A stretch of 48,160 nucleotides of DNA from the NCBI GenBank assembly GCA_903876465.1, contig CAIRAF010000065.1, positions 1 to 48,160 on the forward strand, written 5' to 3'. Source of the stretch: an uncultured bacterium (lineage in GTDB: Bacteria; Patescibacteriota; Minisyncoccia; Phycocordibacterales; PALSA-1337). A program made the position numbers and the translations under genes. This document shows positions 5,792 to 45,988 of the stretch, one piece after another (the first letter of the stretch is position 1; the number at the start of each line of letters is the position of its first letter). The notes beneath the pieces were generated by a model. It saw nothing but the letters and a program-made list of their open reading frames with translations. It was not told the origin of the DNA and did no database searches.

Positions 5792-5804
5792 AAGCCAGAT
5801 TATA

Positions 5805-17206: not shown

Positions 17207-17470
17207 TTAATCTTCGTGCTTGACCATCAATTTTCGAGGACCTTTTGAAACCTTTTTCTGCGTAGGTCGCTTTTCTTTATTTGTCTCAATTTCTGTCAAG
17301 AGCTTTTCAATAGCTTCACGACGATATACACGATAGTTATTGAAGGGATGACGACTAGCCTCTAGCTTGCCATTATTGTCCCAGTTTCGAAGTGTTAATG
17401 CACTCACACCTAGTAATGATGAAGCCTCTTTAATTGTAAGTAATTTTTTATTGTTTGTTTCCATATGCAT
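17207..17470 (-). CDS. Small MerR/excisionase-type helix-turn-helix protein
   Basis: 87-aa ORF. LLTIKEASSLLGVSALTLRNWDNNGKLEASRHPFNNYRVYRREAIEKLL matches the HTH_17/MerR N-terminal pattern. Basic C-terminal tail. Confidence 0.7.
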   Translation of the reverse strand: MHMETNNKKLLTIKEASSLLGVSALTLRNWDNNGKLEASRHPFNNYRVYRREAIEKLLTEIETNKEKRPTQKKVSKGPRKLMVKHED

Positions 17471-18660: not shown

Positions 18661-19463
18661 AAATCTTGAAATCAAAAATGCAGGAATATTCAATCAGTGC
18701 GCTAGTTTTATCTTTTGTATTTGTGATTGTATTTGTATTTTGCACTTCATATCTCGTACCTTTTGCTTTGGCTCAGGTCATGTCGAGCAGTAATTTCAAA
18801 GTTCTAGATCAGAGTGTTAACTTTGCAGGAAATAATTCAAGTTCAACAAATTATCAGATGCAGGATACTGTTGGTGAAATTGCTACAGGTTTCTCATCAA
18901 GTACAAATTATTCGATTAGTGCTGGATATCAGCAGATGAATATCGTCGCAATTTCAGTTGTGCCTCCTACAAACGTCACCATGACTCCAAACTTGGGCGG
19001 TGTGACTGGCGGTACGTCCAATGGATCAACAACGTTTATCGTCACTACAGACGATACTGCTGGATATACTTCAACCATTCAAGCATCTACTTCACCTGCA
19101 CTTGTTAATACTTCATCAACAACAAATTCATTTGCTGATTATGTACCAGCTGGTTCAAATCCAGATTTTACTTTCGCATATGCAGCCACATCATCAGTCT
19201 TTGCTTGGTCAGTCCAAGGCACTGATGCTGATCAGAGATTCTTGAATAACGGTTCTGTTTGCAACAGTGGATCAACTAGTTCTATCACAACATGTTGGGA
19301 TGGACTTTCAACTGGTACAAAGACTGTTGCAGACAGAACTTCAAACAATCAACCATCTGGAACGCAATCAGTTTTGTATTTCCGTGCAGGTATCGGATCA
19401 TTACGTGTTCAACCAAATGGCTTGTATGTAGCTACGACCACTCTAACCGTCATTCCTCTCTAA
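18657..19463 (+). CDS. Secreted beta-rich protein, family member 1 (distant paralogue of 34371 and 35182)
   Basis: 268-aa ORF. N-terminal hydrophobic signal/anchor ending ..FALAQV. It shares with the two downstream paralogues the blocks V(T/V)M(T/S)PxLGG(V/I)TGGTxNG, GY(T/N)xTIQAS, a Cys pair (VCNSG...TCWDG) and LYF(R/Q)xGI...Y(V/I)(A/S)T(T/S)TLT at the C-terminus. Confidence 0.7.
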   Translation: MKILKSKMQEYSISALVLSFVFVIVFVFCTSYLVPFALAQVMSSSNFKVLDQSVNFAGNNSSSTNYQMQDTVGEIATGFSSSTNYSISAGYQQMNIVAISVVPPTNVTMTPNLGGVTGGTSNGSTTFIVTTDDTAGYTSTIQASTSPALVNTSSTTNSFADYVPAGSNPDFTFAYAATSSVFAWSVQGTDADQRFLNNGSVCNSGSTSSITTCWDGLSTGTKTVADRTSNNQPSGTQSVLYFRAGIGSLRVQPNGLYVATTTLTVIPL

Positions 19464-19470
19464 ATTATTT

Positions 19471-22400
19471 ATGAAGCATTTTATTTACATAACATTCATC
19501 CTCACAATCCTTACTGGAGGTGTTATGTACGTACATGCAGCCAGTACTTCTTTCACAACATCTCTCACAACTTACGCTTTTGATAATATTCCTCCAACAG
19601 TTCCAACAGGACTTACAGCCACTCCAATTTCTCAATCCCAAATTGATTTGAGTTGGTTACCTTCAACAGATAATAATCTTGTCGGAGGATATGTTGTTTA
19701 TCGTGACGATGGAGCAATTGCCACAACTTCAGGAACAACCTTTAGTGATACTTTGCTCTCAGCAAGTACAACTTACACATATTCAGTTCAAGCATTTGAT
19801 GGTTCATCAAATTATTCAGCAACTTCAACTTCAGTATCAACAACAACATTACCTGTACCAGTTGTAATCATTTCAACATCAACTCCACCAGTTTCGGGAG
19901 GTTCAACAAGTTCAGGTGGTTCAGCTTTTATCACTGATCTAACTGTTACTCCACACACAGTAGATAGTGTAATAAATTTCAATACTGCATCACCAGCACG
20001 CTCGACAGTATCTTGGGGATTAACTCCAGATCTCGAAGCAGGTTCTATAACAAGTATTTTCTATGACACTACACACGAGATCACGATCACCGGACTCACA
20101 GCAGACACACATTACTATGTTCGAATAAGTGTTGTTGGTGCACAAGGTGTTCAATCATCAGTCGATAGTCAATTCAACACTATCTCACTCAATCCAATAT
20201 CAATTTTGAACCCATCGAACTTTACAGCAACTCCAAAAGGTCTTGGTCAAAACGGTATCAATCTTTCATGGACAAATCCAATAGATCCACGTTTTGGGTC
20301 TGTACGTGTCGTTCGATCAACCACATTCTTCCCAAGAGACCAATATGACGGTGTGCCGGTGTATCAAGGCGCAGGACAAAATTTCTTTGATGCTTCAACT
20401 GTTCCAGGTACACGATATTATTATTCAATCTTTGCAGAAGCGACTGATGGATCTTTCTCTTCAGGAGTACTCGCACAGGCACGCATCGGTATTGTTGGAG
20501 AAATAATTCCAGCCAATAACAATCCATTTACACAAGCTCCACCAGCAAGTAACGTCAATCCTCTTATTGCAAACCTTACAATTTCAGATTTTGAATTTAT
20601 TCAGAATGGAAAATTCCTAACTCCTAATACAAACAATGTTATCTCAATTGATGGCACGAAGAATCTCACAATCAGACTTGCATATAACAAGGTTCCAGAA
20701 ATCTTAAAGACAATTGCTGTATCACTAACTGATCCAAAGGATTCTTCAAAGGCTTTCATCTTCTTGCTCCGTGCAAATGCAAACAAGTCATACTATGAAG
20801 CCAATGTCGGTTCACTCGGCGTGTCTGGAGATTTTCCACTTGCTATCAGTATTCTTGATTATCAGAATCAAAGTTTGAAACAAATTGCTGGAAGTCTTGT
20901 AGCAGCTGTAGGTGATATTGCGATTTCGAGTGATCAATTTGGTCAGCTTTCATTCTGGCTCATAATTATCTTACTCATCGTTCTGCTCGTTATCGTAGTT
21001 CGAATTCTTGCTAAGAAAAATAAAAAAGATAACTCAAAGGGAAGTGACAATGTCACCGTGGTAACTTCAGCAGTAATTGCGCTTGTTATTTTGAGTGGTG
21101 CGATGTTCTTTGGAATTCATCAAGCTTACGCTTTCAATCAACAGATTAACTATCAAGGAAAATTGGCTAATGCTTCAAATATTTCTGTTGCTAACGGCCA
21201 GTATCCTATTGTCTTTAAGTTGTATACAACATCAAGCACGACTACTCCTATTTGGACTGAAACTGATTTTGGCGCAAATCAACCAACAGTTTCTGGTGGA
21301 CTCTTTAGTATCATGCTCGGATCGACAACTCCATTTACTGGTGTTGATTTCAATCAGACTTTGTATCTCGGTGTAACTGTTGCAAGTGATACAGAAATGA
21401 CACCACGTAAAGTTATTGGCGCTGTGCCAGCTGCATTCCTTGCTGGAACCTCAACTATTGCACTTTCCGCAAATACTTTGCAGGGAATTACACCAGGGCA
21501 GTTCTTCCGTAATGATCAACAGAATGCTACTTCATCCGCTGCAACTTTCTTGTCTATTCTCCAAACAGGTGCTGGTAAAGTTGCTGAATTCTTTGCAAGT
21601 GCAGGACAGAGTGCTCTCGCTATTCTCTCAAATGGAAATGTCGGTGTAGGTTCATCAACACCAGTTGCCACACTTTCAGTTACAGGTACAAGTACTGCAG
21701 GAGTAAATCCTTTCATTGTTGCTTCTTCATCTGGAGCAACATTGCTCACTGTTCTTCAGAATGGAAATGTGGGAGTTGGTACTGCTAATCCAAAATTTCA
21801 ATTACATGTTCTTGAATCTGGCCAACCAAGTACTAACAATCCGATCGATGTAATGGCAGTGGAAGTTGGTTCGCCAAGTTCGGGTACAGCTACGGGATAT
21901 GGACCAGCGATTCTTTTTAAAGATATTGGTACAAATGTTACTAATATGGCTAGGATAGGAGCGGTATATGAACCGAATGGAACTAATAATCTCGGTGGTT
22001 TGATTTTTTCTACAAACAGCGATACTAATAACTCCCTTACTCTTCCTTCAGAGAAAATGCGTATAACCGCATTTGGCAACGTTGGAATCGGCACATCATC
22101 ACCTATAGCTTCACTAACTGTTGTTAGTTCGACTACCGCACAGATATCTTTCGTCGTCGCTTCTTCATCTGGTACTCAATTATTAACACTCTTCGGAAAT
22201 GGTAATTTTGGTCTCGGATCAACATCACTTTCAAACCTCTTTACAGTAGCCGGTAACGGATTCTTCAATGGAAATGTAACTGCAACAAATATTATTGCCA
22301 CCGGCACATTGAATGTTAGTGGTCAAACAACACTTGGTAACGCCACAATCACCAATGCATCAACAACCAACCTCGCTGTCACTGGTCTTGCAAACACAGT

Positions 22401-25400
22401 TTTGTCAGTTAATGCTCTTGGTCAAGTAGTTGCAACATCAACTGCTGGATTTGGAACAAACTACTTTAGTAATTCTGGAGCAACTACAACTAACAACTTT
22501 GCAAACCTTGCTTCAACTCTTGGTGTATTTGGAACAATTCAGGCTACAAGTACAACTGGTACAAGTACTTTTGCTGGTGCATCGATATTTACCGGTAACG
22601 TCGGTATCGGAACAACATCTCCAATGGGAGGGTTTGCTTTCCAAGGTTTCAACGCATCGACAAGTGCAACAACAAACTTTGCAGTATATGCAGGAAATGG
22701 ATACTCAAATGCTGGAACCAATGGTCCTGGAAGTAGTATCGCGTTTGTTACTGGAAGTGCAGGTAGTGGTTCAGTAGGATATGCCGGCGGAGATTTTAAT
22801 GTTACGACCGGTAGTGGTGTCTCAAGTAATGCTCCAGGACGTGGCGGTAACATTGCATTTAGTTTAGGAGCTGGTGGAATTGCCGGCCCGGCTGGTGGAG
22901 TCGGAGGAACGTTTGCAGTTGTTTCTGGTAATGGAGGTGCTTCATCTGCAACTCAACCAACTGGTGTTGGAGGAGCAGTTACTCTTACGGCAGGAAATGG
23001 TGGTGCACAAACTGGTTCAGGTTCTAGTGCTGCTGGCGGCGCATTAACGCTTACCGCAGGCAATGGTGGTAATACTACTCTTAATGGATCTCCATCAGGT
23101 ACAGGTGGAACAATTACTTTTACTGCTGGTAATGCAGGTACAGTTTCTTCATCCACATTAGCCGGTGGTAATGGCGGTAACATCATTTTAATTCCTGGTA
23201 CCGCTACTGCCACTGGCACACCTGGTTATGTCGGTATCGGTACAACATCACCATCTAATTTACTTACTGTTGCAGGTAACGGTTTCTTCAACGGCAATAT
23301 TACTGCTACAAACATTACTGCAACTGGAACTCTATCGGTTACTGGTCAGACAACACTTTCTGGTCAGACATTCCTTGTTAACGCTTCAACAACAAACTTT
23401 TCAGCTTCTGGTTTTGCTAACGTTACTGGAACAACCACAACAGGTGGTTTGAGTGTTGCTTCATTAAACGGAGTCCTCTTTGGTACAAACGGAGCAATTA
23501 CAGCTATTGCAACTTCATCACTCGGTATTCCTAACTTCTGGACTCTATCTGGCGCTACGACAACAAACACAGTAGCTAACGTCGCTTCAACTCTTGGTGT
23601 CTTCGGTTCAGTACAAGCAACTAGTACAACTGGAATTAATACATTTGCAGGAACAGTTGGCATCGGCACATCCTCACCTAGTTATCCATTTACTGTTGCA
23701 AGTCAGACAGTAACAACTGTTGTCACTGGCGGAACGAGCAATTTAAATATAGGATCTGATATTGAAGGAATAACACAAAGACAAATTTCAAGTAGTGCAA
23801 CCCAAAATTATATTACATTAAATCTTCTTGCTAGTTCACAAAATACTGTAGCTGGTGGACCAACTAATCAAACAACTTATGGTCTTTATAGTAAGGCCTT
23901 CAGTTCTAATCAGGCTTCGATAAGTAACAATACATATTATGGTGCTTATCTCGAAGCATCAGGAGCTAATGCTGGTGCAACAACTGTAACTGATTATGGT
24001 CTCTATGCAAATGCTATCAGTACTTCGACAAATGCTACGAACTACGCCGTCTATGCAAACGCTGCCAACGGAAGTCAAAACTACGGTATCTATTCTGCAG
24101 CAGGCACGAACTATTTTAATGGTAATGTCGGCATCGGTACAACATCCCCAAGTAATTTACTCACTGTCGCTGGCAACGGTTTCTTCAGCGGCAACATTAC
24201 AGCTACAAATATTACTGCAACTGGAACTCTATCGGTAACAGGTCAGACGACATTGGGAAATGCTTCGACAACCAATATCACAGTTTCAAATAATTTAAAT
24301 GTTACTTCTACCACTACAACAACAGGATTGAAGATAGCGTCACTCTCTGGAGTACTCTTCGGTACAAACGGAGTAATAACAGCAATAGCGACATCATCAC
24401 TCGGTATTCCTAACTACTGGACTCAGTCTGGTGCAACGACAACAAACACAGTGGCTAATGTCGCTTCAACTCTTGGTGTGTTTGGAACAATACAGGCGAC
24501 ATCAACTACAGGAACAAGTACTTTTGCAAGTTCCGCAATATTTAATGGAAGAGTTGGAATCGGAACAACAACACCAGCAGAAAGTTTGACTATATACAAA
24601 GGTACAACTAATGTCAGTACTTTGATTTCAGATAATGGAGTTTTATTTACAAGATCTTACGATGGATTAGCTTCAGCAGGAGTATATTATACTGGAAATA
24701 CGTTCATGACTTCAGACGGAGAAGTTATTCTATATCCAGGTAATCGTACAGCCGTGGATACTATAAATGATTCATCTGTTGGTAAGGCTGCAATCAGCGG
24801 AGCTGTAACTCTTGGTGGCGCGAATCTTCAGGTGATCGGTTCACTTGCAGTTGGCGGAACTTATGCTTCATTATTAACAACACCAGCAAATGGTGCAATC
24901 TTCCAGGGTACTGTCGGCGTTGGCACGTCATCACCATCTACCTCAAACGCTCTTGAGGTTGGCGGTAACGGATATTTTGCAGGGAATATCACTGGTGCAA
25001 ATTTGATTGCAACAAGTACTCTCACAGTCTCTGGTCAAACCACTCTCGCTAATGCTTCAACAACAAACTTGTCAGCTTCTGGTTTCCTCAAGGTCACCGG
25101 TCAAACCACTCTAGGCAATGCAACAATCACTAACGCTTCTACAACCAACCTCGCTATCACTGGTCTCAACAGTGCCATCTTGTCAGTAAATGCACTTGGT
25201 CAAGTTGTTGCAACAACTTCTGGATCTGGAACAAACTACTTCTCTAACTCTGGAGCAACGACAACACTTACTACTGGAACTAACCTTGTTGCCGCACTCT
25301 TCGCTGCTCCTTATTTCTTAGCAACTTCCACAACAGCGACTTCTAGTATTGCAGGAAACTTTAGTGTCACTGGTCCATCAATATTTGGTGGTCAGTTAAC

Positions 25401-28400
25401 AATAGGTAACGGTAATGTGAACACAGATTATGGCGTATCTATAACTAACCTAAATGCAGGATCAAGTGCTGCTGCTGATATTTCTTTTGTAAATAATTCT
25501 GGTGGGAATGCTTATGTTGGAGTTGGTTCAAGTGGAACAGCTGCGGCATATGCTTCACGTGCTTTCTTTGATACTTTCACAGGTTCAGGTACATCTATCC
25601 TATCTTCTGCATCTGGAGGAGATGTACGTTTCTATACAGCTGGTGCAGCTGCTGGAAATGAAAGAATGCGTATCGGTAATACAGGTAATGTTGGTATTGG
25701 TACGACGACAGCATCAAATTTACTTGAAGTCGCAGGTAACGGATATTTTGCTGGTAACCTCACTGCAGCAAATATCACAGCAACTGGAACACTTAATGTT
25801 ACAGGTAAAACAACTCTTGCCGCTGCTTCTACTACCGCATTGACTGTCGCCAATAATCTATTTGTAAATGGAAAAATAGGAATAAATGATCCAAACCCAG
25901 CACCATTTATTGACATAAATCAGAACGGTTCAAATCCAGGTCTAGTTATGCAGAGTACAGCACCATGTGGTACTTATGGCTCATACAACACTGGTAATGC
26001 ACGTTTTGAAGGCGGTACTGATAATGGAGGAAATATCCAATTTGAATCACAAAGAGGTACTGCTGGTTGTGCTCAAGCGGGAGCCATGTATTGGGATTGG
26101 GGTTGGGATAATGGAGGTGACTTTAATTTGAGACTTGCTATGTTTGATGATCATACTTTCCAGGTTTATGATAATGGAAGTGGTACAACGACAGTTTGGT
26201 CATTCCAGCAAAGAGGTGGAACAGTCTTCAATTATGCAACATCAACTATCTTTACTGGTGGTGGTAACGTTGGTATCGGTACGACGACACCTACAGCAAG
26301 TAACATTTTGACTGTCGCTGGTAACGAGTTTGTTAATGGAAACATTACAGCTACAAATATTACTGCAACCGGCACTCTTAATGTCACAGGTCAGACGACA
26401 CTTGGTAATGCAACAATCACTAACGCTTCTACAACCAACCTAGCTATCACTGGTCTCAACAGTACCATCTTGTCAGTAAATGCTCTTGGTCAAGTTGTAG
26501 CAACCACAACATCCGCTGGAACAAACTTCTTCAGTAACTCTGGAGCAACAACGACACTTTCTACCGGATCAAATCTTGTAGCCGCACTCTTTGCAGCACC
26601 ATACTTTATGGCGACATCGACTACAGCAACTTCAACATTTGCTGGAGCATTCGGAATTGGTTCATCAACACCTTCAGCAGCAAATATTCTTACTGTTGCT
26701 GGTAATGGATTCTTTACAGGTAACATTACAGGCGCAAACTTGATTGCAACAGGAAATCTCACCGTTTCTGGTAATTCAACACTTGCTACAACCTCTGCTA
26801 CAAGTCTTTCATCAACCGGTTCATTGACAGTTGGTCCTACAAATCTTACTGCAACAAATAATAGTTTTGCATTCGGTTATGCTCCTGGAACATCAGCTAT
26901 TACAGCAACTGGAACAGGTTCTTTAGCTTTTGGTCAAGCCGTATTTGCTGGGTCTAAAGCTTCAATAATAGCAAATAATACTGGTTCATTCGCAGGAGGT
27001 TTTGCTCTTGGTAATGGAGGTTCTCCAACAATATTATCTTCTGGAGCAGGCTCACTCGCATTTGGTAATACCGGATCAACAAGAAATATTACTTCAAGTG
27101 GAAGTGGCTCTATAGCTATGGGATTGACAACTTCAGGGAATCTTACGGCTACTGGTAATGCCTCAGTTGCTATTGGTCAAGATGTTAACGCTACTGCGAA
27201 CAATGCTTTTGCTCTAGGATCAAGCTTTACAAATGCTACTGCTTCAACTTTCCAAGTTGGTTTCTCAGCTACACCAATTCTTACAGTTACAAATACAAGT
27301 ATTGGTATTGGAACGACTTCACCATCAAATGCTTTGGAAGTCGCTGGTAACGGATATTTTACTGGTAATTTGACTGGTACAAATATTACTGCAACAGGTA
27401 CTCTTGCTGTTTTGGGTCAAACAACACTAGTAAACGCTTCAACTACAAACATTTCTGCAAGTGGTTTTGCGAATGTAACAGGAACTACAACAACCGGTGG
27501 TTTGAGTGTCGGTTCATTGAATGGATTACTTTTTGGAACTAGTGGGGCAGTCACCGCTACAACATCTATTAGTAATTCATATCTCGCCAATTCAACTATT
27601 TCTGGTATATCTCTTGGTCAAAACCTAGCTAATCTCACTGCTACAAACAGTACTCTCACATTCTCAGGTAGTTACAATGGTGGAACCGCTCAAACAGTTG
27701 GACTCAATCTTTCCAATACAAATACATGGAGTGCACTACAGACATTTAGTAATGGCATCATGTCTACAGCAAGTTCAACATTCACAAATATTACGATTGG
27801 ACAATCAACCACAACAAACGCTACTACAACTAGCCTCGCTATCACAGGTCTTTCAAATACAGTCCTCTCAGTAAATGCTCTTGGTCAAGTTGTAGCAACC
27901 ACAACATCCGCTGGAACAAACTTCTTCAGTAACTCTGGTGCAACAACAACACTTTCAACTGGATCAAATCTTGTTGCAGCTCTCTTTGCTGCTCCTTATT
28001 TTTTGGCAACTTCCACAACAGCGACTTCTAGCATTGCAGGAAACCTCACGGTTGATGGTGGTACATTTACTATTAACTCGATTGCCAATTTGGTGGGCAT
28101 TGGTACTGCCAATCCAACTGCAGCCTTTTCTGTTCAAGCAGGAACTAACACAATGCCATTCTTTGTTGCTTCTTCATCAGGCGCACAACTTCTCACTCTT
28201 CTTCAAAATGGAAACTTTGGTATTGGTACTTCAACACCAATAGCTTCATTTAGTTTCCAGGGAGTTGGACAATCAACTACGACATCTGCGAATTCATACT
28301 CGTTCGTTGTTAATGGTGGTAATGGTGTGAACGTTGCTGGTGCTGGAGGCAATGGAGGCGGCGTTCTCTTTAATACAGGTAACGGATTGACTGCTGGTAC

Positions 28401-31400
28401 TTCTGGAACTGGAGGTGACTTCGCGGTAAATACTGGTAACGGAGGCGGTGTTAACCGTGGTGGAAATATGACATTTACTCTCGGCAATGGTGGTGGTACT
28501 TCTAGTAATGGCGGAGCATTCTCTCTAACTGCAGGTAATGGTGGTGGAGCAGCAGGACCACCATCCGGTCCAGGTGGAGCAGTTACTATCACAGCTGGTA
28601 ATGGTGGTGCTCAAGGTGGAGGTAGTTCTGGTGCTCTAGCCGGAGTCCTCACTCTCAACGGTGGTAATGCCGGCAGTGTCACAAGTGGTGGAGTGAATGG
28701 TGGAAATATTATCCTTATGCCTGGTCTTGGTTCTGGAACAGGTCTTCGTGGCCTTGTCGGTATCGGTTCATCAACACCATCCGCCATGCTTTCTGTTCTT
28801 GCAGCCACCAACACCATTCCTTTTGTTGTTGCTTCTTCATCTGGCGCACAACTCCTCACTCTTCTTCAAAATGGAAACTTTGGTATTGGCACATCTTCAC
28901 CTTCAAATATGCTTGAAGTTGCAGGTAATGGATATTTTGCAGGAAATATCACAGCTACAAATATCACCGCAACCGGCACTCTTAATGTCACAGGTCAGAC
29001 GACACTTGGTAATGCAAATATCACAAACTCAACAACAACGAACGCTACAACAACCAACCTAGCTATCACTGGTCTTAACAGTGTAATCTTGTCAGTCAAT
29101 GCATTAGGTCAGGTTGTTGCAACAACTTCTGGATCAGGAACAAACTACTTCAGTAACTCTGGTGCCACAACGACACTTTCAACAGGATCAAATCTTGTAG
29201 CCGCACTCTTCGCTGCTCCTTATTTCTTGGCAACATCTTCTACGGCGACGAGTAATTTTGGAGGTAATGCCACTGTAGGTACAACAAGTTTAGTGTCTGC
29301 ATCAAATAATAGTTTTGCTTTGGGTGATATTTATTCAGCAAATGCTGGAAGTACATACTCTGTTGTTTCATCAGGAGGAGGTTCGTTTGCTGGTGGAGCA
29401 GTGCAGACACCAGCTGGAACTGCTACGTCAACTATACTTTCGTCTGGTCCCGGATCTTTTGCATTCGGTATTTCTGTTGGTGTTTCTGGTGGAACGAGCA
29501 AGATTACTTCTTCGGGGGCTGGTTCTGTAGCTTTAGGGTATTCAAGTGGCACTACTGCTGGAACCGGTTTGATTTCAGCATCTGGAAACGGATCATTTGC
29601 TGGTGGATATATGTCTAACACTGGTAGCGGAACCGCATCGACAACAGCATCTGGTATTGGTGCATTTGCGTGGGGAACTGGTGTCGGTGCATATCAGACG
29701 CTATCGACTGCCTTTGGTAGCGGTTATGTAAACAACACCGCAAATTCATTTATGGTTGGTTATTCAGCAATACCAACTCTTACAGTCAATAGTACATCAG
29801 TTGGTATCGGCACAACTTCACCTTCAAATACACTTTCAGTTGCTGGTAACAGTTTCATCAATGGAAATGAGACAGCAACAAATATCACCGCAACCGGCAC
29901 TCTCACTGTCTCTGGTCTAACAACGCTTGGTAACGCTTCAACCACATCATTTACTTCAACAGGTCCAACATTCTTGGCGACCGGTGGAGGAAATGTTGGA
30001 ATTGGAACAGCTGCTCCAGCTTATCCATTTTCAGTGCAAGGAAGTATTGTTGATGATTTGTCTTTTATGCAAAATACGAATGTTTCCGGATGGAGTACAA
30101 TGGTTTTGGCAAATAGTAATGCAACAATTAAGACGAGTTTTGGTATAGGTAATGCTTCTGCATCAACCTTTGCTAATACAGCTTTCTTTGATGTCTTTGC
30201 AGGTGGAGCTCCGTTTGTTCTCGCAACAAATGATACAGAACGTATGAGAATTGAAAATGGTGGCAATATAGATATAGGTACAACTTCATCATCAAACCTA
30301 CTCTCTGTTGGTGGTAATGGATTCTTTACCGGTAACCTTACAGCAGCGAACATGATTGCAACAGGAACTCTAATTGTTTCTGGCCAGACAACTCTTGGTA
30401 AAACAATAATGTCTAATTCAACTACAACTAATGCAACCACAACTAACCTCGCTATCACTGGTCTAAACAGTGTAATCTTGTCAGTTAATGCATTGGGTCA
30501 AGTAGTTGCAACGACTTCTGGATCCGGTACTAACTACTTCAGTAACTCTGGTGCCACAACAACACTTTCAACAGGATCAAATCTTGTAGCAGCTCTCTTC
30601 GCCGCTCCATATTTCACAGCAACATCAACTACTGCAACAAGTACTTTTGCTGGAAATGTTTTCGTAGGTCCTACAAACCCTAATTTCTATCCCGCTTCTC
30701 CTTTAGTAGTTACTACCAATACAAATAATTATGGTCAATTTGTTGTTCAAAATTTGAATAGTGGAAATAATGCCAGTGGAGACTTAATTGTTGGTGGAGA
30801 TAAAATGACTGACACTTCATATTACGGAGATCTTGGATGTAATAGTTCAACGTTCAATCAAGTAGGACAAACAATTTTGCCAGCATTTGATTGTTATCTT
30901 TATTCTTCAGATTCAAATCTTGATATTGGTACCGCTTCAACAACTGGTCCTTCAAACATCAATTTCTTTACAGGAGGAACGCTTGCAGCAAACAATCGTA
31001 TGACTATTTTGACCAACGGTAATGTTGGCATCGGTACAACTTCACCATCATCACTCAACCTTCTTACTGTCGCTGGAAACGGATTCTTCAATGGAAGTTT
31101 GACTGCTGGTACACTCAACGCAGCATCTACAACTGGTACAAGTACAATTGCCGGAAACTTGGTTGTTGGCCCATCATCTGGAACTACAGGCTTCATGATG
31201 GATGCAAATGGCAACGTCGGTATTGGTACATCTACACTTTCAAATATTCTCGAAGTCGCTGGTAATGGATATTTTGCCGGTAACCTCACTGGTGCAAATA
31301 TTACTGCAACTGGAACTTTGGCCGCAATTTCAAATATTGCTCTTGGTACTTCTACTTATAGTTTTGTTGATGGAATTGCAATGGACTATATACAAGCAGC

Positions 31401-34191
31401 AAGTGGTAATGGTCGTATCAGTGTGGGTCCTTCAGATAGCTTGAGTTTCTACAATGGAGGTCTTGGTAATACACGTCTAGGTTATTTCGATCCAAACGGA
31501 AACTTCTATTCAAATACAATCAATGCGACATCGACAACAGGTACAAGTACATTTGCAGGGAATTTGACTGTCGATGGCGGTACGCTTACTGTCAATTCAA
31601 TCAATAACACAGTTGGTATTAACACAACAAATTCAAATGCAACTCTTGGAATTAAGGGTTCATCTGGTACAAATCCATTTGTCATTGCTTCATCATCTGC
31701 AACAGTTGCATTCAATATGCTCACCCTCAACCAGGCTGGCGACTTTGGTATAGGTTCATCGTCACCAAGTGCAAACCTTTCAATCCAAGACAACTCTGGT
31801 CTCGCTGGAACAAATCCACTATTCATTATCGCATCTTCAACTTTGACTGGAACAGCTACAACAACACTTCTTTCACTCTTCGGTAACGGTAACTTCGCCC
31901 TTGGAACGACTTCACCATCAAACATCTTTACAGCAGTTGGTAACGGTTATTTCTCCGGTAACCTCACAGCAGCAAACATGATTGCAACGGGAACTATCAC
32001 GCAACTAGGTACAGGCACATCTACATTTGCAGGAGGTCTTAATGTCGATAGTGGAACATTTATTGTAAATCCAACAACAAATACTGTCGGTATAAATACA
32101 ACTAATTCTAACGTAACTCTCAATGTTAAAGGAACTGCCGGATTTAACCCATTTGTTATTGCTACTTCGTCAGCAACCGTAGCATTCAACATGCTTACAC
32201 TTAACCAAGCAGGAAGTTTTGGTATCGGCACATCAACACCTGCAGCTAAACTTTCAATTCAAGATAACTCAGGTTTAGCAGCAACAAATCCACTATTCGT
32301 TATCGCATCTTCAACTTTGACTGGAACAGCTACAACAACACTTCTCACACTCCTTGGTAACGGTAACTTCGCCCTTGGTTCAACCACTCCTTCAGGTATC
32401 TTTACGGCAGTCGGTAACGGATATTTCTCAGGTAGTTTGACTGCTGGTGCAATCACAGCTACAAGTACATTGACTGTTGTTGGTAATACCTCACTTCAAA
32501 ATGCTTCAACAACGAACCTTTCAGTTTCTGGATTCTTTAGACAAACCGGTACTTCTGGTACAAACCCATTTGTTATCGCTTCTTCATCAGCTACACAATT
32601 CAGCATGCTCGCTCTTCTTCAGAACGGATTCCTCGGTATAGGTTCATCAACTCCAGGTTCAAAGCTTTCTATCCAAGATAACTCTGGTGCTGCGACATCG
32701 ACTGGACTATTTACAATCGCATCATCAACTTCTGCGGGAGCTGCAACAACAACACTCTTCACAGTTACTGGTGGTGGTTATGTCGGAATTGGTACAACGA
32801 CACTCGTCTCAACATTCACAGTTGCTGGTTCAGCCTGTTTCGCTTCAACGACACAGGCCGGTGCAAAGACTGTTTGTGGTACAAGAACTGGTAACATTTA
32901 TTACGATACGGCAAACCCTGGTAACTACGACGTCGCCGAAAACTATCAGACATCTGATCCATCTATAAGTGCCGGTGACATCGTTTCTGCTGATCCATCA
33001 CGACCAAAGAATATTTTGCGAGCTACAACAGGTAGTCGTGTTCTCGGTGTTATTTCTACTCAACCTGGTGAACTTCTTGGTGGATCAAGTCCAGATATTC
33101 TCACAGCAACCATGAGACCAGTTGCTCTATCAGGACGTATTCCAGCAAAGGTTAGTACTGAAAATGGACCAATCGCTATTGGAGATTCAATTGCTTTGTC
33201 GAGTGTAGCAGGTATTGGTATGAAGGCTTCAGGTTCAGGTGAAAGAGTTGGTATCGCTCTTGAGTCATATTCAGGAAATGGTGTTGGTGTTATCGACATC
33301 TTTGCTAATCTCGGTCAGAATGTTGACCTCAATCAGTTCGCACTCGCAAGTTCAACAAATGCTTCAACAACAGTCATCGCTGATGAATTAACAGTAGCGC
33401 TTGCATCAATACAGTCATTGCAAGGTCAAACAAATAATTTGAATAATCAATTCACAGCATTCTCTTCATCTACTTCAAACTTTATTTCTTCAGTTTCCTC
33501 AACAACAGCGGCGGCTCTAGCTTCATCAACATCATTTGTTCAGACTATCGCTGATGCAGTTGTCAGTATCCTCAATGCAAGTGGTCAAGTTATAAATTCT
33601 GCAGGGAAGTGGACGGTTGGAGAAATTACAGCTCTCACTGGAACCTTCAATAAAGTTATAGCCGGTCGCGTCGAAACTCAGACCGCCGCAGTTTCGAATG
33701 GTATAGAAATGTCATCACCAAATGGACAACTCTGGTGTGTACGTATAGATAACACTGGTAACTTTGTTCGAACAACGGGATCATGTGATACATCTGCATC
33801 GACGACACCTGTAACTAATACACCTATAACTACAGGTCAAAGTAACACGGCTCCAGTAGTTACAAATAATCAGCCAACCTCAACAACCACTGTAACTTCA
33901 GCACCAGTCAATTCAACATCAACTGATAATACAAGTTCAAACACAACTAATCCAACAACCTCATCTTCGACATCTTCTACACCAGTAGTGACTTCAACTC
34001 CTGCTCCAGCACCAACAACCACAACGGCTCCAGATACTACAGTAACTCCAGCCTCAACAAGTCCAACTCCTACGACTTCAACGACACCAGCGCCAGTAGT
34101 TACTCCAGCTCCTGCTCCAACAGTAACGACAGCAGTAGCTCCAGATCCCACAACTTCAACCTCTGCAACGCCTCCAACAACATCACCGTGA
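19471..34191 (+). CDS. Giant (4,906 aa) mosaic cell-surface fibre/adhesin
   Basis: Uninterrupted 14.7-kb ORF ending TGA TGA.
- Signal peptide MKHFIYITFILTILTGGVMYVHA.
- Three FN3-like domains (e.g. PTGLTATPISQSQIDLSWLPS...YTYSVQAFD).
- Two-TM hairpin at about aa 490-554.
- About 15 copies of NVGIGT(T/S)SPxxLLxVAGNG(F/Y)FxGN(I/L)TAxNIxATGTL modules, of the kind seen in phage-tail-fibre-like proteins.
- Two Gly-rich LTAGNGG tracts.
- Two SxAxG YadA-head-like tracts.
- C-terminal globular module and an S/T/P tail. Confidence 0.9.
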   Translation: MKHFIYITFILTILTGGVMYVHAASTSFTTSLTTYAFDNIPPTVPTGLTATPISQSQIDLSWLPSTDNNLVGGYVVYRDDGAIATTSGTTFSDTLLSASTTYTYSVQAFDGSSNYSATSTSVSTTTLPVPVVIISTSTPPVSGGSTSSGGSAFITDLTVTPHTVDSVINFNTASPARSTVSWGLTPDLEAGSITSIFYDTTHEITITGLTADTHYYVRISVVGAQGVQSSVDSQFNTISLNPISILNPSNFTATPKGLGQNGINLSWTNPIDPRFGSVRVVRSTTFFPRDQYDGVPVYQGAGQNFFDASTVPGTRYYYSIFAEATDGSFSSGVLAQARIGIVGEIIPANNNPFTQAPPASNVNPLIANLTISDFEFIQNGKFLTPNTNNVISIDGTKNLTIRLAYNKVPEILKTIAVSLTDPKDSSKAFIFLLRANANKSYYEANVGSLGVSGDFPLAISILDYQNQSLKQIAGSLVAAVGDIAISSDQFGQLSFWLIIILLIVLLVIVVRILAKKNKKDNSKGSDNVTVVTSAVIALVILSGAMFFGIHQAYAFNQQINYQGKLANASNISVANGQYPIVFKLYTTSSTTTPIWTETDFGANQPTVSGGLFSIMLGSTTPFTGVDFNQTLYLGVTVASDTEMTPRKVIGAVPAAFLAGTSTIALSANTLQGITPGQFFRNDQQNATSSAATFLSILQTGAGKVAEFFASAGQSALAILSNGNVGVGSSTPVATLSVTGTSTAGVNPFIVASSSGATLLTVLQNGNVGVGTANPKFQLHVLESGQPSTNNPIDVMAVEVGSPSSGTATGYGPAILFKDIGTNVTNMARIGAVYEPNGTNNLGGLIFSTNSDTNNSLTLPSEKMRITAFGNVGIGTSSPIASLTVVSSTTAQISFVVASSSGTQLLTLFGNGNFGLGSTSLSNLFTVAGNGFFNGNVTATNIIATGTLNVSGQTTLGNATITNASTTNLAVTGLANTVLSVNALGQVVATSTAGFGTNYFSNSGATTTNNFANLASTLGVFGTIQATSTTGTSTFAGASIFTGNVGIGTTSPMGGFAFQGFNASTSATTNFAVYAGNGYSNAGTNGPGSSIAFVTGSAGSGSVGYAGGDFNVTTGSGVSSNAPGRGGNIAFSLGAGGIAGPAGGVGGTFAVVSGNGGASSATQPTGVGGAVTLTAGNGGAQTGSGSSAAGGALTLTAGNGGNTTLNGSPSGTGGTITFTAGNAGTVSSSTLAGGNGGNIILIPGTATATGTPGYVGIGTTSPSNLLTVAGNGFFNGNITATNITATGTLSVTGQTTLSGQTFLVNASTTNFSASGFANVTGTTTTGGLSVASLNGVLFGTNGAITAIATSSLGIPNFWTLSGATTTNTVANVASTLGVFGSVQATSTTGINTFAGTVGIGTSSPSYPFTVASQTVTTVVTGGTSNLNIGSDIEGITQRQISSSATQNYITLNLLASSQNTVAGGPTNQTTYGLYSKAFSSNQASISNNTYYGAYLEASGANAGATTVTDYGLYANAISTSTNATNYAVYANAANGSQNYGIYSAAGTNYFNGNVGIGTTSPSNLLTVAGNGFFSGNITATNITATGTLSVTGQTTLGNASTTNITVSNNLNVTSTTTTTGLKIASLSGVLFGTNGVITAIATSSLGIPNYWTQSGATTTNTVANVASTLGVFGTIQATSTTGTSTFASSAIFNGRVGIGTTTPAESLTIYKGTTNVSTLISDNGVLFTRSYDGLASAGVYYTGNTFMTSDGEVILYPGNRTAVDTINDSSVGKAAISGAVTLGGANLQVIGSLAVGGTYASLLTTPANGAIFQGTVGVGTSSPSTSNALEVGGNGYFAGNITGANLIATSTLTVSGQTTLANASTTNLSASGFLKVTGQTTLGNATITNASTTNLAITGLNSAILSVNALGQVVATTSGSGTNYFSNSGATTTLTTGTNLVAALFAAPYFLATSTTATSSIAGNFSVTGPSIFGGQLTIGNGNVNTDYGVSITNLNAGSSAAADISFVNNSGGNAYVGVGSSGTAAAYASRAFFDTFTGSGTSILSSASGGDVRFYTAGAAAGNERMRIGNTGNVGIGTTTASNLLEVAGNGYFAGNLTAANITATGTLNVTGKTTLAAASTTALTVANNLFVNGKIGINDPNPAPFIDINQNGSNPGLVMQSTAPCGTYGSYNTGNARFEGGTDNGGNIQFESQRGTAGCAQAGAMYWDWGWDNGGDFNLRLAMFDDHTFQVYDNGSGTTTVWSFQQRGGTVFNYATSTIFTGGGNVGIGTTTPTASNILTVAGNEFVNGNITATNITATGTLNVTGQTTLGNATITNASTTNLAITGLNSTILSVNALGQVVATTTSAGTNFFSNSGATTTLSTGSNLVAALFAAPYFMATSTTATSTFAGAFGIGSSTPSAANILTVAGNGFFTGNITGANLIATGNLTVSGNSTLATTSATSLSSTGSLTVGPTNLTATNNSFAFGYAPGTSAITATGTGSLAFGQAVFAGSKASIIANNTGSFAGGFALGNGGSPTILSSGAGSLAFGNTGSTRNITSSGSGSIAMGLTTSGNLTATGNASVAIGQDVNATANNAFALGSSFTNATASTFQVGFSATPILTVTNTSIGIGTTSPSNALEVAGNGYFTGNLTGTNITATGTLAVLGQTTLVNASTTNISASGFANVTGTTTTGGLSVGSLNGLLFGTSGAVTATTSISNSYLANSTISGISLGQNLANLTATNSTLTFSGSYNGGTAQTVGLNLSNTNTWSALQTFSNGIMSTASSTFTNITIGQSTTTNATTTSLAITGLSNTVLSVNALGQVVATTTSAGTNFFSNSGATTTLSTGSNLVAALFAAPYFLATSTTATSSIAGNLTVDGGTFTINSIANLVGIGTANPTAAFSVQAGTNTMPFFVASSSGAQLLTLLQNGNFGIGTSTPIASFSFQGVGQSTTTSANSYSFVVNGGNGVNVAGAGGNGGGVLFNTGNGLTAGTSGTGGDFAVNTGNGGGVNRGGNMTFTLGNGGGTSSNGGAFSLTAGNGGGAAGPPSGPGGAVTITAGNGGAQGGGSSGALAGVLTLNGGNAGSVTSGGVNGGNIILMPGLGSGTGLRGLVGIGSSTPSAMLSVLAATNTIPFVVASSSGAQLLTLLQNGNFGIGTSSPSNMLEVAGNGYFAGNITATNITATGTLNVTGQTTLGNANITNSTTTNATTTNLAITGLNSVILSVNALGQVVATTSGSGTNYFSNSGATTTLSTGSNLVAALFAAPYFLATSSTATSNFGGNATVGTTSLVSASNNSFALGDIYSANAGSTYSVVSSGGGSFAGGAVQTPAGTATSTILSSGPGSFAFGISVGVSGGTSKITSSGAGSVALGYSSGTTAGTGLISASGNGSFAGGYMSNTGSGTASTTASGIGAFAWGTGVGAYQTLSTAFGSGYVNNTANSFMVGYSAIPTLTVNSTSVGIGTTSPSNTLSVAGNSFINGNETATNITATGTLTVSGLTTLGNASTTSFTSTGPTFLATGGGNVGIGTAAPAYPFSVQGSIVDDLSFMQNTNVSGWSTMVLANSNATIKTSFGIGNASASTFANTAFFDVFAGGAPFVLATNDTERMRIENGGNIDIGTTSSSNLLSVGGNGFFTGNLTAANMIATGTLIVSGQTTLGKTIMSNSTTTNATTTNLAITGLNSVILSVNALGQVVATTSGSGTNYFSNSGATTTLSTGSNLVAALFAAPYFTATSTTATSTFAGNVFVGPTNPNFYPASPLVVTTNTNNYGQFVVQNLNSGNNASGDLIVGGDKMTDTSYYGDLGCNSSTFNQVGQTILPAFDCYLYSSDSNLDIGTASTTGPSNINFFTGGTLAANNRMTILTNGNVGIGTTSPSSLNLLTVAGNGFFNGSLTAGTLNAASTTGTSTIAGNLVVGPSSGTTGFMMDANGNVGIGTSTLSNILEVAGNGYFAGNLTGANITATGTLAAISNIALGTSTYSFVDGIAMDYIQAASGNGRISVGPSDSLSFYNGGLGNTRLGYFDPNGNFYSNTINATSTTGTSTFAGNLTVDGGTLTVNSINNTVGINTTNSNATLGIKGSSGTNPFVIASSSATVAFNMLTLNQAGDFGIGSSSPSANLSIQDNSGLAGTNPLFIIASSTLTGTATTTLLSLFGNGNFALGTTSPSNIFTAVGNGYFSGNLTAANMIATGTITQLGTGTSTFAGGLNVDSGTFIVNPTTNTVGINTTNSNVTLNVKGTAGFNPFVIATSSATVAFNMLTLNQAGSFGIGTSTPAAKLSIQDNSGLAATNPLFVIASSTLTGTATTTLLTLLGNGNFALGSTTPSGIFTAVGNGYFSGSLTAGAITATSTLTVVGNTSLQNASTTNLSVSGFFRQTGTSGTNPFVIASSSATQFSMLALLQNGFLGIGSSTPGSKLSIQDNSGAATSTGLFTIASSTSAGAATTTLFTVTGGGYVGIGTTTLVSTFTVAGSACFASTTQAGAKTVCGTRTGNIYYDTANPGNYDVAENYQTSDPSISAGDIVSADPSRPKNILRATTGSRVLGVISTQPGELLGGSSPDILTATMRPVALSGRIPAKVSTENGPIAIGDSIALSSVAGIGMKASGSGERVGIALESYSGNGVGVIDIFANLGQNVDLNQFALASSTNASTTVIADELTVALASIQSLQGQTNNLNNQFTAFSSSTSNFISSVSSTTAAALASSTSFVQTIADAVVSILNASGQVINSAGKWTVGEITALTGTFNKVIAGRVETQTAAVSNGIEMSSPNGQLWCVRIDNTGNFVRTTGSCDTSASTTPVTNTPITTGQSNTAPVVTNNQPTSTTTVTSAPVNSTSTDNTSSNTTNPTTSSSTSSTPVVTSTPAPAPTTTTAPDTTVTPASTSPTPTTSTTPAPVVTPAPAPTVTTAVAPDPTTSTSATPPTTSP
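22270..30660 (+). repeat. Dispersed intragenic repeat family (six copies of the ...ILSVNALGQVVAT...SNSGATTT... module plus flanking VAGNGFF modules)
   Basis: Core copies start near 22402, 25180, 26470, 27866, 29090 and 30478. Copies 3 and 4 share a 71-nt identical run (tcagtaaatgctcttggtcaagttgtagcaaccacaacatccgctggaacaaacttcttcagtaactctgg). Confidence 0.85.
23230..24560 (+). repeat. Direct duplication with ~897-nt period inside the giant gene
   Basis: 23230-23354 versus 24127-24251 are about 89% identical at DNA level by eye, including the identical run attactgcaactggaactctatcggt. The following GVLFGTNG..ITAIATSSLGIPN(F/Y)W.. blocks are also duplicated. Confidence 0.8.
31551..32810 (+). repeat. 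Tandem ~471-nt (157-aa) coding repeat, about 2.7 copies
   Basis: Units begin near 31551, 32022 and about 32490. Protein-level repeat: TFAG.L.VD.GT..VN...NTVGINTTNSN.TL..KG..G.NPFVIA.SSATVAFNMLTLNQAG.FGIG.S.P.A.LSIQDNSGLA.TNPLF.IASSTLTGTATTTLL.L.GNGNFALG.T.PS.IFTAVGNGYFSG.LTA. Confidence 0.8.
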
Positions 34192-34370: not shown

Positions 34371-35054
34371 ATGATTAAAAATATAACAAAAATAATCAGT
34401 AATGCAGGGCTAACAATGCTCGTTCTGGCCTTTGCATTTACTACGGTCGAACCAGCAGTTAGTTTTGGGGCACCAGTACAGAGTCAGTTCACTATCTCTC
34501 AAACAACAAATTCTGAAGTCTCATTTGTAACTTTAGCTTCTAATGTTGTGATGTCACCAACTCTTGGAGGTATCACTGGTGGTACAGCAAATGGTTTGAC
34601 ACAAGTTGCAGTTTTGTCCAACAATTCCACTGGTTACAACATGACCATCCAAGCAAGTTCGACAGGTGCTATGCAAGGTACAGCAAGTTCAACTAACTTT
34701 ATTCCAGTTTATTCGACTACTACTCCAGACTATAACTTCGTTACCCCGGCCAACAGTGCACGTTTCGGTTATACAGTGAATGCGAGTACGACGAGTGATG
34801 TAACAGCACTTTTCAAGTCCAATGGTTCGAATCTTTGTGGTGTGGGTGGTTCAACATCTGGTGGAGGTATACATTGTTGGATCGGTGCAACTTCAACAGC
34901 TGTACAAATCATAAATCGCGGGACTGCAACAGCGGGTACCGGTGCCACAACTACCTTGTATTTCCAAGTTGGTATAGCAGCTAACCCTCTCCCAGCAATA
35001 CCAAATGATACTTATGTTTCCACTTCAACATTGACAGCTACTGCCAATCCATAA
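34371..35054 (+). CDS. Secreted beta-rich protein, family member 2
   Basis: 227-aa ORF. Signal-like N-terminus ...LVLAFAFTTVEPAVSFGA. Close paralogue of 35182-35877 and distant paralogue of 18657-19463. Conserved Cys pair (LCGVGG...HCWIG). C-terminus YVSTSTLTATANP. Confidence 0.75.
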   Translation: MIKNITKIISNAGLTMLVLAFAFTTVEPAVSFGAPVQSQFTISQTTNSEVSFVTLASNVVMSPTLGGITGGTANGLTQVAVLSNNSTGYNMTIQASSTGAMQGTASSTNFIPVYSTTTPDYNFVTPANSARFGYTVNASTTSDVTALFKSNGSNLCGVGGSTSGGGIHCWIGATSTAVQIINRGTATAGTGATTTLYFQVGIAANPLPAIPNDTYVSTSTLTATANP

Positions 35055-35163
35055 TCTAGTGAAAAACTGTGGATAAGTAGAGTGAAAATTACATTAAAAA
35101 TTGAGCAGAATATGATACAATTTAAGCAATAAAGGACCAGTCAAAATAGATTAATATAGACCC

Positions 35164-35181
35164 AATAATAATAATAATAAT
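35164..35181 (+). repeat. (AAT)6 microsatellite abutting the start codon of 35182
   Basis: aataataataataataat lies immediately 5' of the ATG at 35182. Confidence 0.9.
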
Positions 35182-35877: not shown

Positions 35878-35887
35878 TTAAACTACA

Positions 35888-44410: not shown

Positions 44411-44549
44411 TAATTAAAAAATATAATGAGTACAAAAAAAATTAAAGTTCAATTACCAATGTCAACGACTGTATTATTGTACGTAAGTGCCATTTCAAAT
44501 TTCATTGCAACTTACATTATTATTAAATCTTTTCTTTGGCAATAATTTT

Positions 44550-45924: not shown

Positions 45925-45944
45925 TTTACATAATAAAAGTCAAC

Positions 45945-45974
45945 CAAAAAAGCTCCAGAAATGGAGTTTTTTTG
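45945..45974 (+). terminator. Intrinsic terminator after rplY
   Basis: aaaaaagctcca-gaaa-tggagttttttt. Stem with a GAAA loop and a T-run. Confidence 0.6.
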
Positions 45975-45988
45975 CTATAATACTGCTA

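Follow-up and report, generated by a model that had tools for sequence, protein, structure and literature searches.

A giant phage-tail-fibre-like protein fused in frame to an FN3 membrane protein in a Patescibacteria chromosome, proposed as a cell-surface fibre

The DNA analysed here, hereafter the window, is a stretch of 48,160 nucleotides (nt) that makes up contig CAIRAF010000065.1 of an uncultured bacterium (assembly GCA_903876465.1), and the subject of this text is one very large gene within it, an open reading frame (ORF) at 19471..34191 on the + strand that encodes 4,906 amino acids (aa). The product is best read as a Sec-exported cell-surface fibre of a tiny, probably symbiotic Paceibacteria-type bacterium, built on the plan shared by phage tail fibres and the MAT (mosaic adhesive trimer) fibres of Bdellovibrio bacteriovorus and fused to a membrane partner, a reading to which we give a probability of about 0.6.

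An earlier note on this DNA, made from its letters, had argued that such a long ORF is really coding, and this is borne out. The ORF begins with ATG and has no internal stop in 4,906 codons, for which the chance is ~1e-131 (computed at 42% GC), the bias in base use between codon positions is strong (G 34/18/7% and T 19/25/44% at positions 1/2/3), and paralogous blocks within it have a synonymous divergence (dS) of 0.7-1.3 with a dN/dS of 0.09-0.39. The duplications are therefore old, with the reading frame held under purifying selection. When the protein is compared with itself the repeats cover aa ~680-4460 and the N- and C-terminal ends are unique, with the DNA copies 60-88% identical over up to 300 nt; copies this old and this divergent are not the repeats that short-read assemblers collapse or invent. 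The divergence of the repeats and the selection on them thus argue against repeat collapse, repeat expansion or a non-coding frame, and collapse of repeats as an artefact was rejected on these grounds.

Family databases reach little of the protein, with ~85% of it (~4,200 residues) lying outside any Pfam, NCBIfam or PHROG match. Pfam gives one FN3 domain for the whole protein and NCBIfam and PHROGs give no match at all, so that between aa 350 and the C-terminus none of the three finds anything. A phmmer search of the PDB with the whole protein likewise finds FN3 only, the MAT fibres being reached only with profiles made from the repeats.

The fused gene

The part of the ORF that comes before the fibre, together with the joint between the two, has the following features.

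19471..34191, + strand: the whole fused ORF
19471..19539, + strand: Sec signal peptide, aa 1-23 (cut as ..VHA/AS), inferred from sequence and kept in stand-alone FN3 relatives
19603..19830, + strand: FN3 domain 1, aa 45-120 (Pfam fn3 5.4e-8; PDB FN3 matches 1k85 and 8pn5)
19939..20490, + strand: FN3-like domains 2 and 3, aa ~157-236 and ~247-340, respectively below the cut-off and undetected by hidden Markov model
20491..20955, + strand: juxtamembrane conserved domain, aa 341-495 (invariant columns K413-L502 among relatives)
20956..21012, + strand: membrane helix 1, aa 496-514 (hydropathy 3.37), anchor of the ancestral FN3 protein
21013..21051, + strand: basic loop KKNKKDNSKGSDN, aa 515-527, the fusion joint, cytoplasmic by inference
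21052..21132, + strand: membrane helix 2, aa 528-554 (hydropathy 2.33; hydrophobic stretch aa 528-549)

Three FN3 domains had been claimed previously, of which the first stands; the second gives Pur_ac_phosph_N at 1.4e-5 (26 bits vs a 30-bit cut-off) and fn3 at 0.005, and thus stays under the cut-off, and the third goes undetected (fn3 E 0.16). Relatives of the FN3 protein carry PF00041 and PF16656. The most conserved part of this protein is the juxtamembrane domain, for which there is no Pfam match. The two membrane helices inside the ORF had been overlooked, as had the gp12-type nature of the C-terminal domain described below. The second helix ends in A552-Y-A554, a signal-peptidase motif that places the cut before F555, after which comes NQQINYQGKL.

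A search for relatives of the FN3 protein with aa 1-720 returned mostly stand-alone proteins of 510-600 aa, whose C-terminus follows closely on a single membrane helix and a basic K/R tail. In 53 species-level genomes of Paceibacterota/Parcubacteria the fibre gene is always found directly 3' of the FN3 gene, the two forming one ORF in ~14 of the 53 and two ORFs in the rest. Where the pair is split the ORFs overlap or lie 0-5 nt apart, and the fibre ORF starts with Met and a Sec signal peptide ending in A-x-A, followed by (A)(I/F)NxxINYQGKL. The elements found in frame in the window mirror these split forms, and helix 2 is therefore the signal peptide of the fibre gene, retained within the fused protein. 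On the evidence of gene order and matching sequence elements, the comparison shows the giant ORF to be an in-frame fusion of an FN3 membrane protein (aa 1-527) with a fibre protein. The A-x-A before (A)(I/F)NxxINYQGKL is kept in 7/7 fused junctions examined, and the sequences of the joints differ. As the FN3 part is a separate gene in most relatives it is best seen as a partner protein, and its earlier placing as a module of the fibre itself is set aside, this part being a neighbouring gene that has been fused in frame.

The closest relative, contig L001, carries the same fused gene, in a gene order that agrees all the way from MurB to the TPR protein. Within it (L001:11690-11730, ENA ERZ27272026 k141_274255) is a 20-nt tandem duplication, GCTGATGGACAGTATCCAA(A/T) twice over and orthologous to window position ~21190, that shifts the frame just past the fibre signal peptide and breaks the gene into two ORFs, one of 576 aa and one of 2,402 aa; the product of the shorter is on record for 4 contigs, which do not all stem from one source. 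The frameshifted copy could be a pseudogene, a gene that is switched on and off, or a step on the way back to two genes.

Fibre shaft and C-terminal chaperone

Beyond the joint the fibre protein consists of a conserved N-domain, a long repetitive shaft and a composite C-terminus.

21133..21570, + strand: fibre N-domain FNQQINYQGKL..., aa 555-~700 (36 invariant columns in 15 sequences)
21571..32850, + strand: repetitive shaft, aa ~700-4460, with 15 stalk modules, 9 'B' modules and knob inserts
22594..23223, + strand: Gly-rich tract 1, aa 1042-1251
26848..27270, + strand: S-x-A-x-G head-like tract 1, aa ~2460-2600 (YadA_head E 0.045)
28210..28749, + strand: Gly-rich tract 2, aa 2914-3093, a paralogue of tract 1
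29308..29775, + strand: S-x-A-x-G head-like tract 2, aa ~3280-3435 (no Pfam match)
32911..33345, + strand: phi29-gp12-type intramolecular chaperone domain, aa ~4481-4625, from AlphaFold2 (AF2), Foldseek and a motif
32929-32931, + strand: codon of D4487, with self-cleavage predicted between Y4486 and D4487 from alignment to the start of 3gqh
33373..33579, + strand: long helix after the chaperone, aa 4635-4703 (AF2 moderate confidence, model residues 201-250 and 253-269)
33688..33789, + strand: two-Cys beta mini-domain, aa ~4740-4773 (..LWCVRIDNTGNFVRTTGSCD; AF2 pLDDT 87-91)
33790..34188, + strand: P/T/S-rich low-complexity tail, aa 4774-4906 (133 aa; P 15%, S/T/N 54%)

The kinship of the shaft is seen once its repeats are made into profiles. 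A profile of the 15 stalk modules matches only the MAT fibres of Bdellovibrio in the PDB (8ond/Bd2133, 8ol4, 8ojn and 8oml), with E-values of 4e-8 for 8ond, 7.5e-5 and 1.9e-4 for 8ol4 and 1e-3 for 8ojn, and a profile of the region N-terminal to the chaperone domain also finds MAT fibres only. In these fibres a capping loop is described as the boundary of beta-helix segments (Caulton et al. 2024, PMC10769870). The motif for such loops, taken here as V-G-I-G/N-small-x-x-P-x-x-x-L and bounding beta-helix segments, occurs in 18 strict or 29 loose copies in the giant protein against 0.018 in shuffles. Capping loops and similarity to solved MAT fibres are thus found together, and motif counts and profile matches show a shaft that carries MAT-type capping-loop segments.

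The motif counts of the earlier note were recovered: 15 stalk modules are counted, as against its ~15, when they are anchored on AGNG(F/Y)F, a recount gives 20-23 G-x-V-G-I-G-T sites and 13 GQTTL-type sites, the three xRMRI and one RMTI are located as EKMRI, ERMRI twice and NRMTI, LTAGNGG occurs 3 times within the two Gly-rich tracts, and the two S-x-A-x-G tracts are present. The description of the modules as tail-fibre-like agrees with the profile matches to MAT fibres. Its labels for the other parts fare less well. Read by eye, the Gly-rich tracts consist of ~8 units of 19-23 aa with the form GG-x-h-x-h-x-x-G-N-G-G plus a loop; they match no family in Pfam or NCBIfam, neither of which finds a PE domain, and since these units are not GGAGGx-type repeats either, a relative of PE_PGRS was ruled out and the PGRS-like label dropped. 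The YadA-head-like label goes the same way, as the YadA_head match reaches 14.6 bits against a cut-off of 25 and concerns one tract only, and with no beta-barrel membrane anchor present a YadA-type autotransporter was ruled out as well. Nor is there support for the earlier idea that the ORF joins different classes of protein, because phage-tail-fibre-like trimeric fibres, the MAT fibres of Bdellovibrio included, combine beta-helix capping loops, head-like tracts and a C-terminal chaperone within one known class.

Relatives of the shaft are numerous. An exhaustive search of 1.84 billion representatives with aa 2265-3134 returned 585 at E 1e-3, 174 at 1e-10 and 11 at 1e-30, including proteins of 4,534, 4,289, 4,285, 4,169 and 3,671 aa. 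A module, LANSTISGISLGQNLANLTATNSTLTFSGSYNGGTAQTVGLNLSNTNTWSALQTF (27580-27750, aa ~2705-2760), recurs nearly unchanged in many fragments from this search and has no family. When the shaft is set against L001 the ends are collinear and conserved and the middle is a non-collinear mosaic, with seven window blocks all corresponding to one L001 block and both Gly-rich tracts to one L001 tract; these many-to-one matches show that the shaft has roughly doubled in length by duplication of internal blocks. Structure prediction by segment, which the earlier note had proposed, worked for the C-terminal domain and gave a poor result for aa 2392-2913, where the AF2 monomer (522 aa) has a pLDDT of 56.6 and a low-confidence beta-ladder in the S-x-A-x-G tract.

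The N-domain in front of the shaft is proposed to be a docking or base domain, a prediction made from sequence. In the PDB its profile has no match (the nearest, ribosomal L3 at E 1.2, is regarded as chance), it has no relative in Pfam or among the 2.9 million viral contigs of IMG/VR, and the NYQG motif is absent from the supplements of the MAT paper (PMC10769870).

The globular C-terminus that had been noticed previously is a confident AF2 domain with the fold of a phi29-gp12-type autochaperone. With aa 4435-4773 as the query 36 homologues came back, most of them in CPR (candidate phyla radiation) genome bins, and some also carry Bact_surface_Ig-like, Collar, YadA_head, Peptidase_S74 or Peptidase_G2. 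With the resulting alignment AF2 gives a confident beta domain at aa ~4484-4619 (pLDDT >90), for which the best Foldseek matches in the PDB are the phi29 gp12 C-terminal fragment 3gqh_A (E 6.2e-5, TM 0.58 on target) and premature gp12, 3suc (6.9e-5), with phage decoration proteins next, and the best viral fold in BFVD is a 'preneck appendage protein' (E 9e-12). Against the 3gqh fragment the family profile gives an E of 0.0066 and places D-l-A-E-n-Y over residues 1-4 (DFAE) of that fragment; in the giant protein the motif reads D4487-V-A-E4490, and its D, A and E do not vary among the homologues that cover it (30/30). Pfam PF11962 (Peptidase_G2) is matched by 4/37 homologues, the best at 3.5e-5. 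Fold and motif together show that a chaperone fold of the phi29-gp12 type, in which D-x-A-E is invariant, closes the fibre. In the original structural work on gp12 self-cleavage reportedly takes place immediately before this Asp, between residues 691 and 692. Models of mature gp12* end at residue 691 (PMC6542822).

The giant relatives have either a gp12-type domain or an S74-type SDxRxK motif in the same place, always 300-450 aa from the end, and this alternation in their sequences shows that the gp12-type chaperone is interchangeable with S74 among cellular giant fibres. The giant protein of the window has neither a PF13884 (S74) match nor an SDxxxK motif. Within the extension that follows the chaperone, the C-x5-G-x3-C of the mini-domain is part of the consensus of the homologue family. 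A relative with an S74 chaperone has a like ending (..GITLYDKITGQPYCVVISNGQLTPTPGVCP, then a P/T-rich tail).

A single-sequence scan of viral contigs found one phage fibre with this chaperone domain. It is a 2,187-aa fibre/spike protein (L059:1821-8384, IMGVR_UViG_3300017788_002919) that the gp12-type domain (..ALYADLAENYTAD..GRVPCKV..) ends exactly, with a collagen-like repeat protein encoded next to it, and it can serve as a phage comparator for the cellular domain. As this phage protein ends at the chaperone, the helix, mini-domain and tail look specific to the cellular proteins.

Partner genes, proposed working and rival readings

The fused gene is flanked by small genes that accompany it in other genomes.

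17818..19463, + strand: two conserved upstream partners (homologues in 56-57/58 related loci)
18657-19463, + strand: the 268-aa small protein of this upstream pair, with a signal-peptide-like N-terminus and no family
34371..36955, + strand: downstream partners, three genes, for two paralogues of the 268-aa protein and a 355-aa protein
34371-35054 and 35182-35877, + strand: these 227-aa and 231-aa proteins, with signal-peptide-like N-termini and no family
35888-36955, + strand: the 355-aa protein, which has a hydrophobic segment at either end

The other upstream partner, of 280 aa, has a weak HTH_17 match, and most of the 53 loci have an ORF of 250-296 aa immediately upstream of their FN3 gene. 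The 268-, 227- and 231-aa proteins are paralogous, with 37-41% and 73-75% identity. The hydrophobic ends of the 355-aa protein are read by eye as a signal peptide and a membrane anchor; it has a weak match to the WxLIP/DUF916 peptidoglycan-binding family (E 1e-4, below cut-off), and such a protein is present in 31/58 related loci. The fibre locus and its partners look like one conserved surface-structure operon, and the gene set presumably resembles the WxL/Csc cell-surface-complex loci of Firmicutes.

How such a protein may work can be proposed from its parts. The first signal peptide would export the FN3 ectodomain, with helix 1 stopping transfer and helix 2 setting export going again for the ~4,350 residues that remain. 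A cut by signal peptidase is probable just behind A554 and would restore a membrane base and a free fibre, the two ancestral products, and the N-domain of the fibre may then dock either on this base or on the small secreted proteins encoded nearby. The C-terminal chaperone would bring three chains into register so that they zip into a trimeric beta-helical fibre, and it probably cleaves itself off between Y4486 and D4487. For the finished fibre (aa 555-4486) a length of roughly 160-235 nm would be expected, which is about as much as a CPR cell is wide. This estimate scales to 3,930 residues the dimensions of MAT fibres, namely ~550 Å in Bd3182 (922 aa) and 142-150 Å over 370 aa in Bd2133 (PMC10769870). 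The task of the fibre would be to attach to a surface or to a second cell, with an episymbiont's host as the most plausible target. Its trimeric state and its function in adhesion we infer from analogy, attachment being suggested by the MAT fibres and by the giant surface proteins of patescibacterial epibionts (PMC13059738).

A wider view is held only tentatively. It sees in the locus a conserved surface organelle of Paceibacteria-type CPR bacteria, in which a membrane base of FN3, small secreted and DUF916-like proteins would carry a trimeric phage-like fibre of up to ~0.2 µm, completed by a self-cleaving chaperone and with its modules reshuffled through internal duplication and the swapping of chaperones or tips, for the recognition of hosts, the fused protein of the window being a polyprotein split by signal peptidase. 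If true, this would be a cellular counterpart of the receptor-binding fibres of phages, serving as the host-recognition device of episymbionts.

There are points that weigh against the reading as an exported surface fibre. The cutting at A554, the docking on the FN3 protein, the self-cleavage and the binding target are all predictions. The assignment of the chaperone rests mainly on fold and motif, given the profile E of 0.0066 and the failure of PF11962 to match the domain of the window even at E <=10. For the poorly modelled segment at aa 2392-2913 Foldseek finds no match below E 1. A further ~280 aa follow the chaperone, an extension that the single phage protein compared (L059) does not have, and this C-terminal piece could be an anchor or sorting signal rather than something discarded. 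The frameshifted copy in L001 indicates that such genes can decay.

The alternative that survives best, though we consider it doubtful, is that the fusion is never cut, so that helices 1 and 2 form a hairpin and the FN3 ectodomain and the fibre remain one covalently anchored chain, this being the point of the fusion. Roughly one in four related genomes has the fused form fixed, and the joint sequences differ, which suggests that the fusion is tolerated or useful, and no other anchor, be it a sortase motif, a lipobox or a C-terminal helix, is visible in the fibre. Yet the A-x-A has been retained in all seven fused junctions, as continued cleavage predicts, and in most genomes the fibre is a separate secreted protein.

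It is improbable that the protein is a single-chain beta-solenoid adhesin, or a protein associated with the wall or S-layer, with its C-terminal domain serving as a tip or in a cement-like role in place of a trimerising chaperone. The AF2 monomer does show beta-ladders in the S-x-A-x-G tract, and its best folds, although insignificant, are single-chain beta-helix adhesins, the C-terminal fold is found in phage decoration proteins as well, and the extension after the chaperone has no explanation under a trimer model. However, every sequence relative with a solved structure is an intertwined trimer (PMC10769870), the invariant D-x-A-E aligns to the start of the C-terminal fragment of gp12, and relatives carry an S74 chaperone, Collar or YadA_head, all of which come from trimeric proteins.

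We consider it very unlikely that the gene is an assembly artefact, whether a chimera or an expansion or collapse of repeats, or that the fusion stems from a single-base sequencing error. An exact-sequence look-up found no other record of the giant protein, and its closest relative, in L001, is half as long, but the divergence of the repeats tells against such an origin, as do independent assemblies that hold giant fibres of 3,400-4,534 aa and fused ORFs of >4,023 aa and 3,649 aa, and the fusion joint is continuous in other fused loci and in the fragment P0039, which is intact across it. It is hardly credible that the ORF belongs to a phage or prophage as a tail-fibre gene, or that it was inserted recently from a phage, and a prophage gene was rejected: capping-loop modules and a gp12-type chaperone are indeed typical of phage fibres, but the fibre protein has no PHROG match, carries Sec signal peptides and membrane helices, has an N-domain without relatives in viral contigs and lies between housekeeping and surface genes of a chromosome in a locus that is syntenic across 53 Paceibacteria-type genomes.

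Setting, significance and likeness to known systems

Upstream of the fibre locus the window holds SecA, NUDIX, Obg, GatB, MurB and polysaccharide genes, and downstream are TGT, an aldolase, L25, a pilin-like protein and a transglycosylase. The window is bacterial chromosome and not phage; no phage structural family is found among the Pfam matches of its other ORFs, and no tRNA genes were found in it. The relatives come from genome bins of Paceibacterota, Parcubacteria, Zambryskibacteria and Taylorbacteria, and the organism is therefore a Paceibacteria-type member of the Patescibacteria (CPR). Promoter-like sites at the locus are no commoner than in shuffled sequence, and a regulatory scan found no terminator-like site 3' of the ORF.

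An 87-aa protein encoded at 17207-17470 on the - strand is transcribed away from the fibre operon, and counterparts of 83-89 aa in the same position in L001, L003 and L005 match MerR/HTH_17; it is a candidate regulator of the fibre locus. In the more distant relative L003 (JGI 3300037155) a 638-aa PT-HINT/intein-like protein (L003:8079-9995) is encoded directly upstream of the FN3 gene, and two extra genes (277 and 286 aa) lie between the FN3 gene and a fibre gene of >2,901 aa.

Glycosyltransferase, methyltransferase, flippase-like and sugar-nucleotide genes are found at 68-7329, and the shaft has 0.8-4% charged residues and 36-44% Ser/Thr/Asn. From this composition and the nearby genes of glycosylation type, heavy glycosylation of the shaft is possible. 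Two large membrane proteins of 770 and 791 aa, at 7427-9739 and 37014-39389, both carry TPR repeats at the C-terminus. The first, which includes an O-antigen-ligase (Wzy_C) domain, is encoded ~10 kb upstream of the fibre locus; the second is directly downstream of it and syntenic in L001. A type IV pilin-like protein with an N_methyl motif (44487-45143) and a protein of 534 aa that has a lytic transglycosylase domain (45755-47359) are encoded ~10 kb downstream of the locus, the listed ORF of the latter overlapping the L25 gene by ~170 nt, so that its true start is probably later.

Few Patescibacteria have been cultured, and the question of how these bacteria locate and grip their hosts still stands, with the hosts of Paceibacteria not even known. 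The locus offers a concrete and conserved candidate for host attachment, found in at least 53 species-level genomes. A phage-tail-fibre-like trimeric adhesin completed by a self-cleaving chaperone is already known. What is new is its occurrence in a CPR lineage, its size, a gp12-type chaperone in cellular giant fibres that is interchangeable with S74, the cassette after the chaperone, the fusion to an FN3 partner by way of an internal signal peptide and the conserved operon. A published description of this family of Paceibacteria fibres was not found in a literature coverage that is incomplete. The gene is also a clean example of a fusion that retains an internal signal peptide.

Several known systems share part of this plan. 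Among epibionts, the giant surface proteins of Absconditicoccaceae (PMC13059738) are likewise very large, with signal peptides or membrane helices, FN3 domains and a proposed role in host contact; the part of that source available describes them by FN3, integrin and concanavalin-like domains and does not report a phage-fibre-like shaft or a self-cleaving chaperone. YadA and AtaA are also long surface fibres, with head repeats that the S-x-A-x-G tracts resemble, and one relative of the giant protein has a true YadA_head match. However, the giant protein lacks their C-terminal beta-barrel anchor and has its N-terminus at the membrane, so that export and orientation differ.

The fibres and spikes of phages with an S74 domain, such as T5 pb1 and the K1F endosialidase, follow a like logic, a trimeric beta-helix with a C-terminal chaperone that removes itself, and relatives of the giant protein carry S74 (PF13884) at the equivalent place, whereas the giant protein is cellular and Sec-exported and has neither the domain nor its motif. 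Its own chaperone, at aa ~4481-4625, finds its best fold in phi29 gp12 (PF11962; 3gqh, 3suc), and both sit at the end of a fibrous protein. Sequence identity between the two domains is only 16-18%, in the giant protein a Tyr precedes the predicted cut, and the rest of gp12 is unmatched by any part of it. The phi29-gp12-type autochaperone is in this way extended to cellular giant proteins.

The closest likeness is to the MAT fibres of Bdellovibrio (Bd2133, Bd3182; 8ond, 8ol4, 8ojn), which are intertwined trimers on the surface of the predator that are tied to the handling of prey, one of them binding prey glycans (PMC10769870). They are the only sequence relatives of the shaft in the PDB, and the V-G-I-G/N-x-x-x-P-x-x-x-L capping loops are shared, as is a mosaic of swappable modules, with a C-terminal chaperone in many MAT members. 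MAT fibres have a signal peptide and then a conserved N-domain, which is ~130 aa and beta-rich; that of the giant fibre is ~150 aa, strongly conserved and placed after helix 2, a likeness of position. MAT fibres are ~1,000 aa, which makes the giant fibre about four to five times longer, and the latter further differs in its ~280-aa extension after the chaperone and in its fusion to the FN3 membrane protein. The S74 subgroup of MAT is excluded for the giant fibre, which with its gp12-type chaperone would be at most 'NS74-like'. MAT fibres come from a Gram-negative predator and the giant fibre from a member of the Patescibacteria, whose cells are not known to have an outer membrane. Bdellovibrio itself lives on other bacteria, and the fibre described here extends phage-like fibres of the MAT type from that predator to CPR bacteria.

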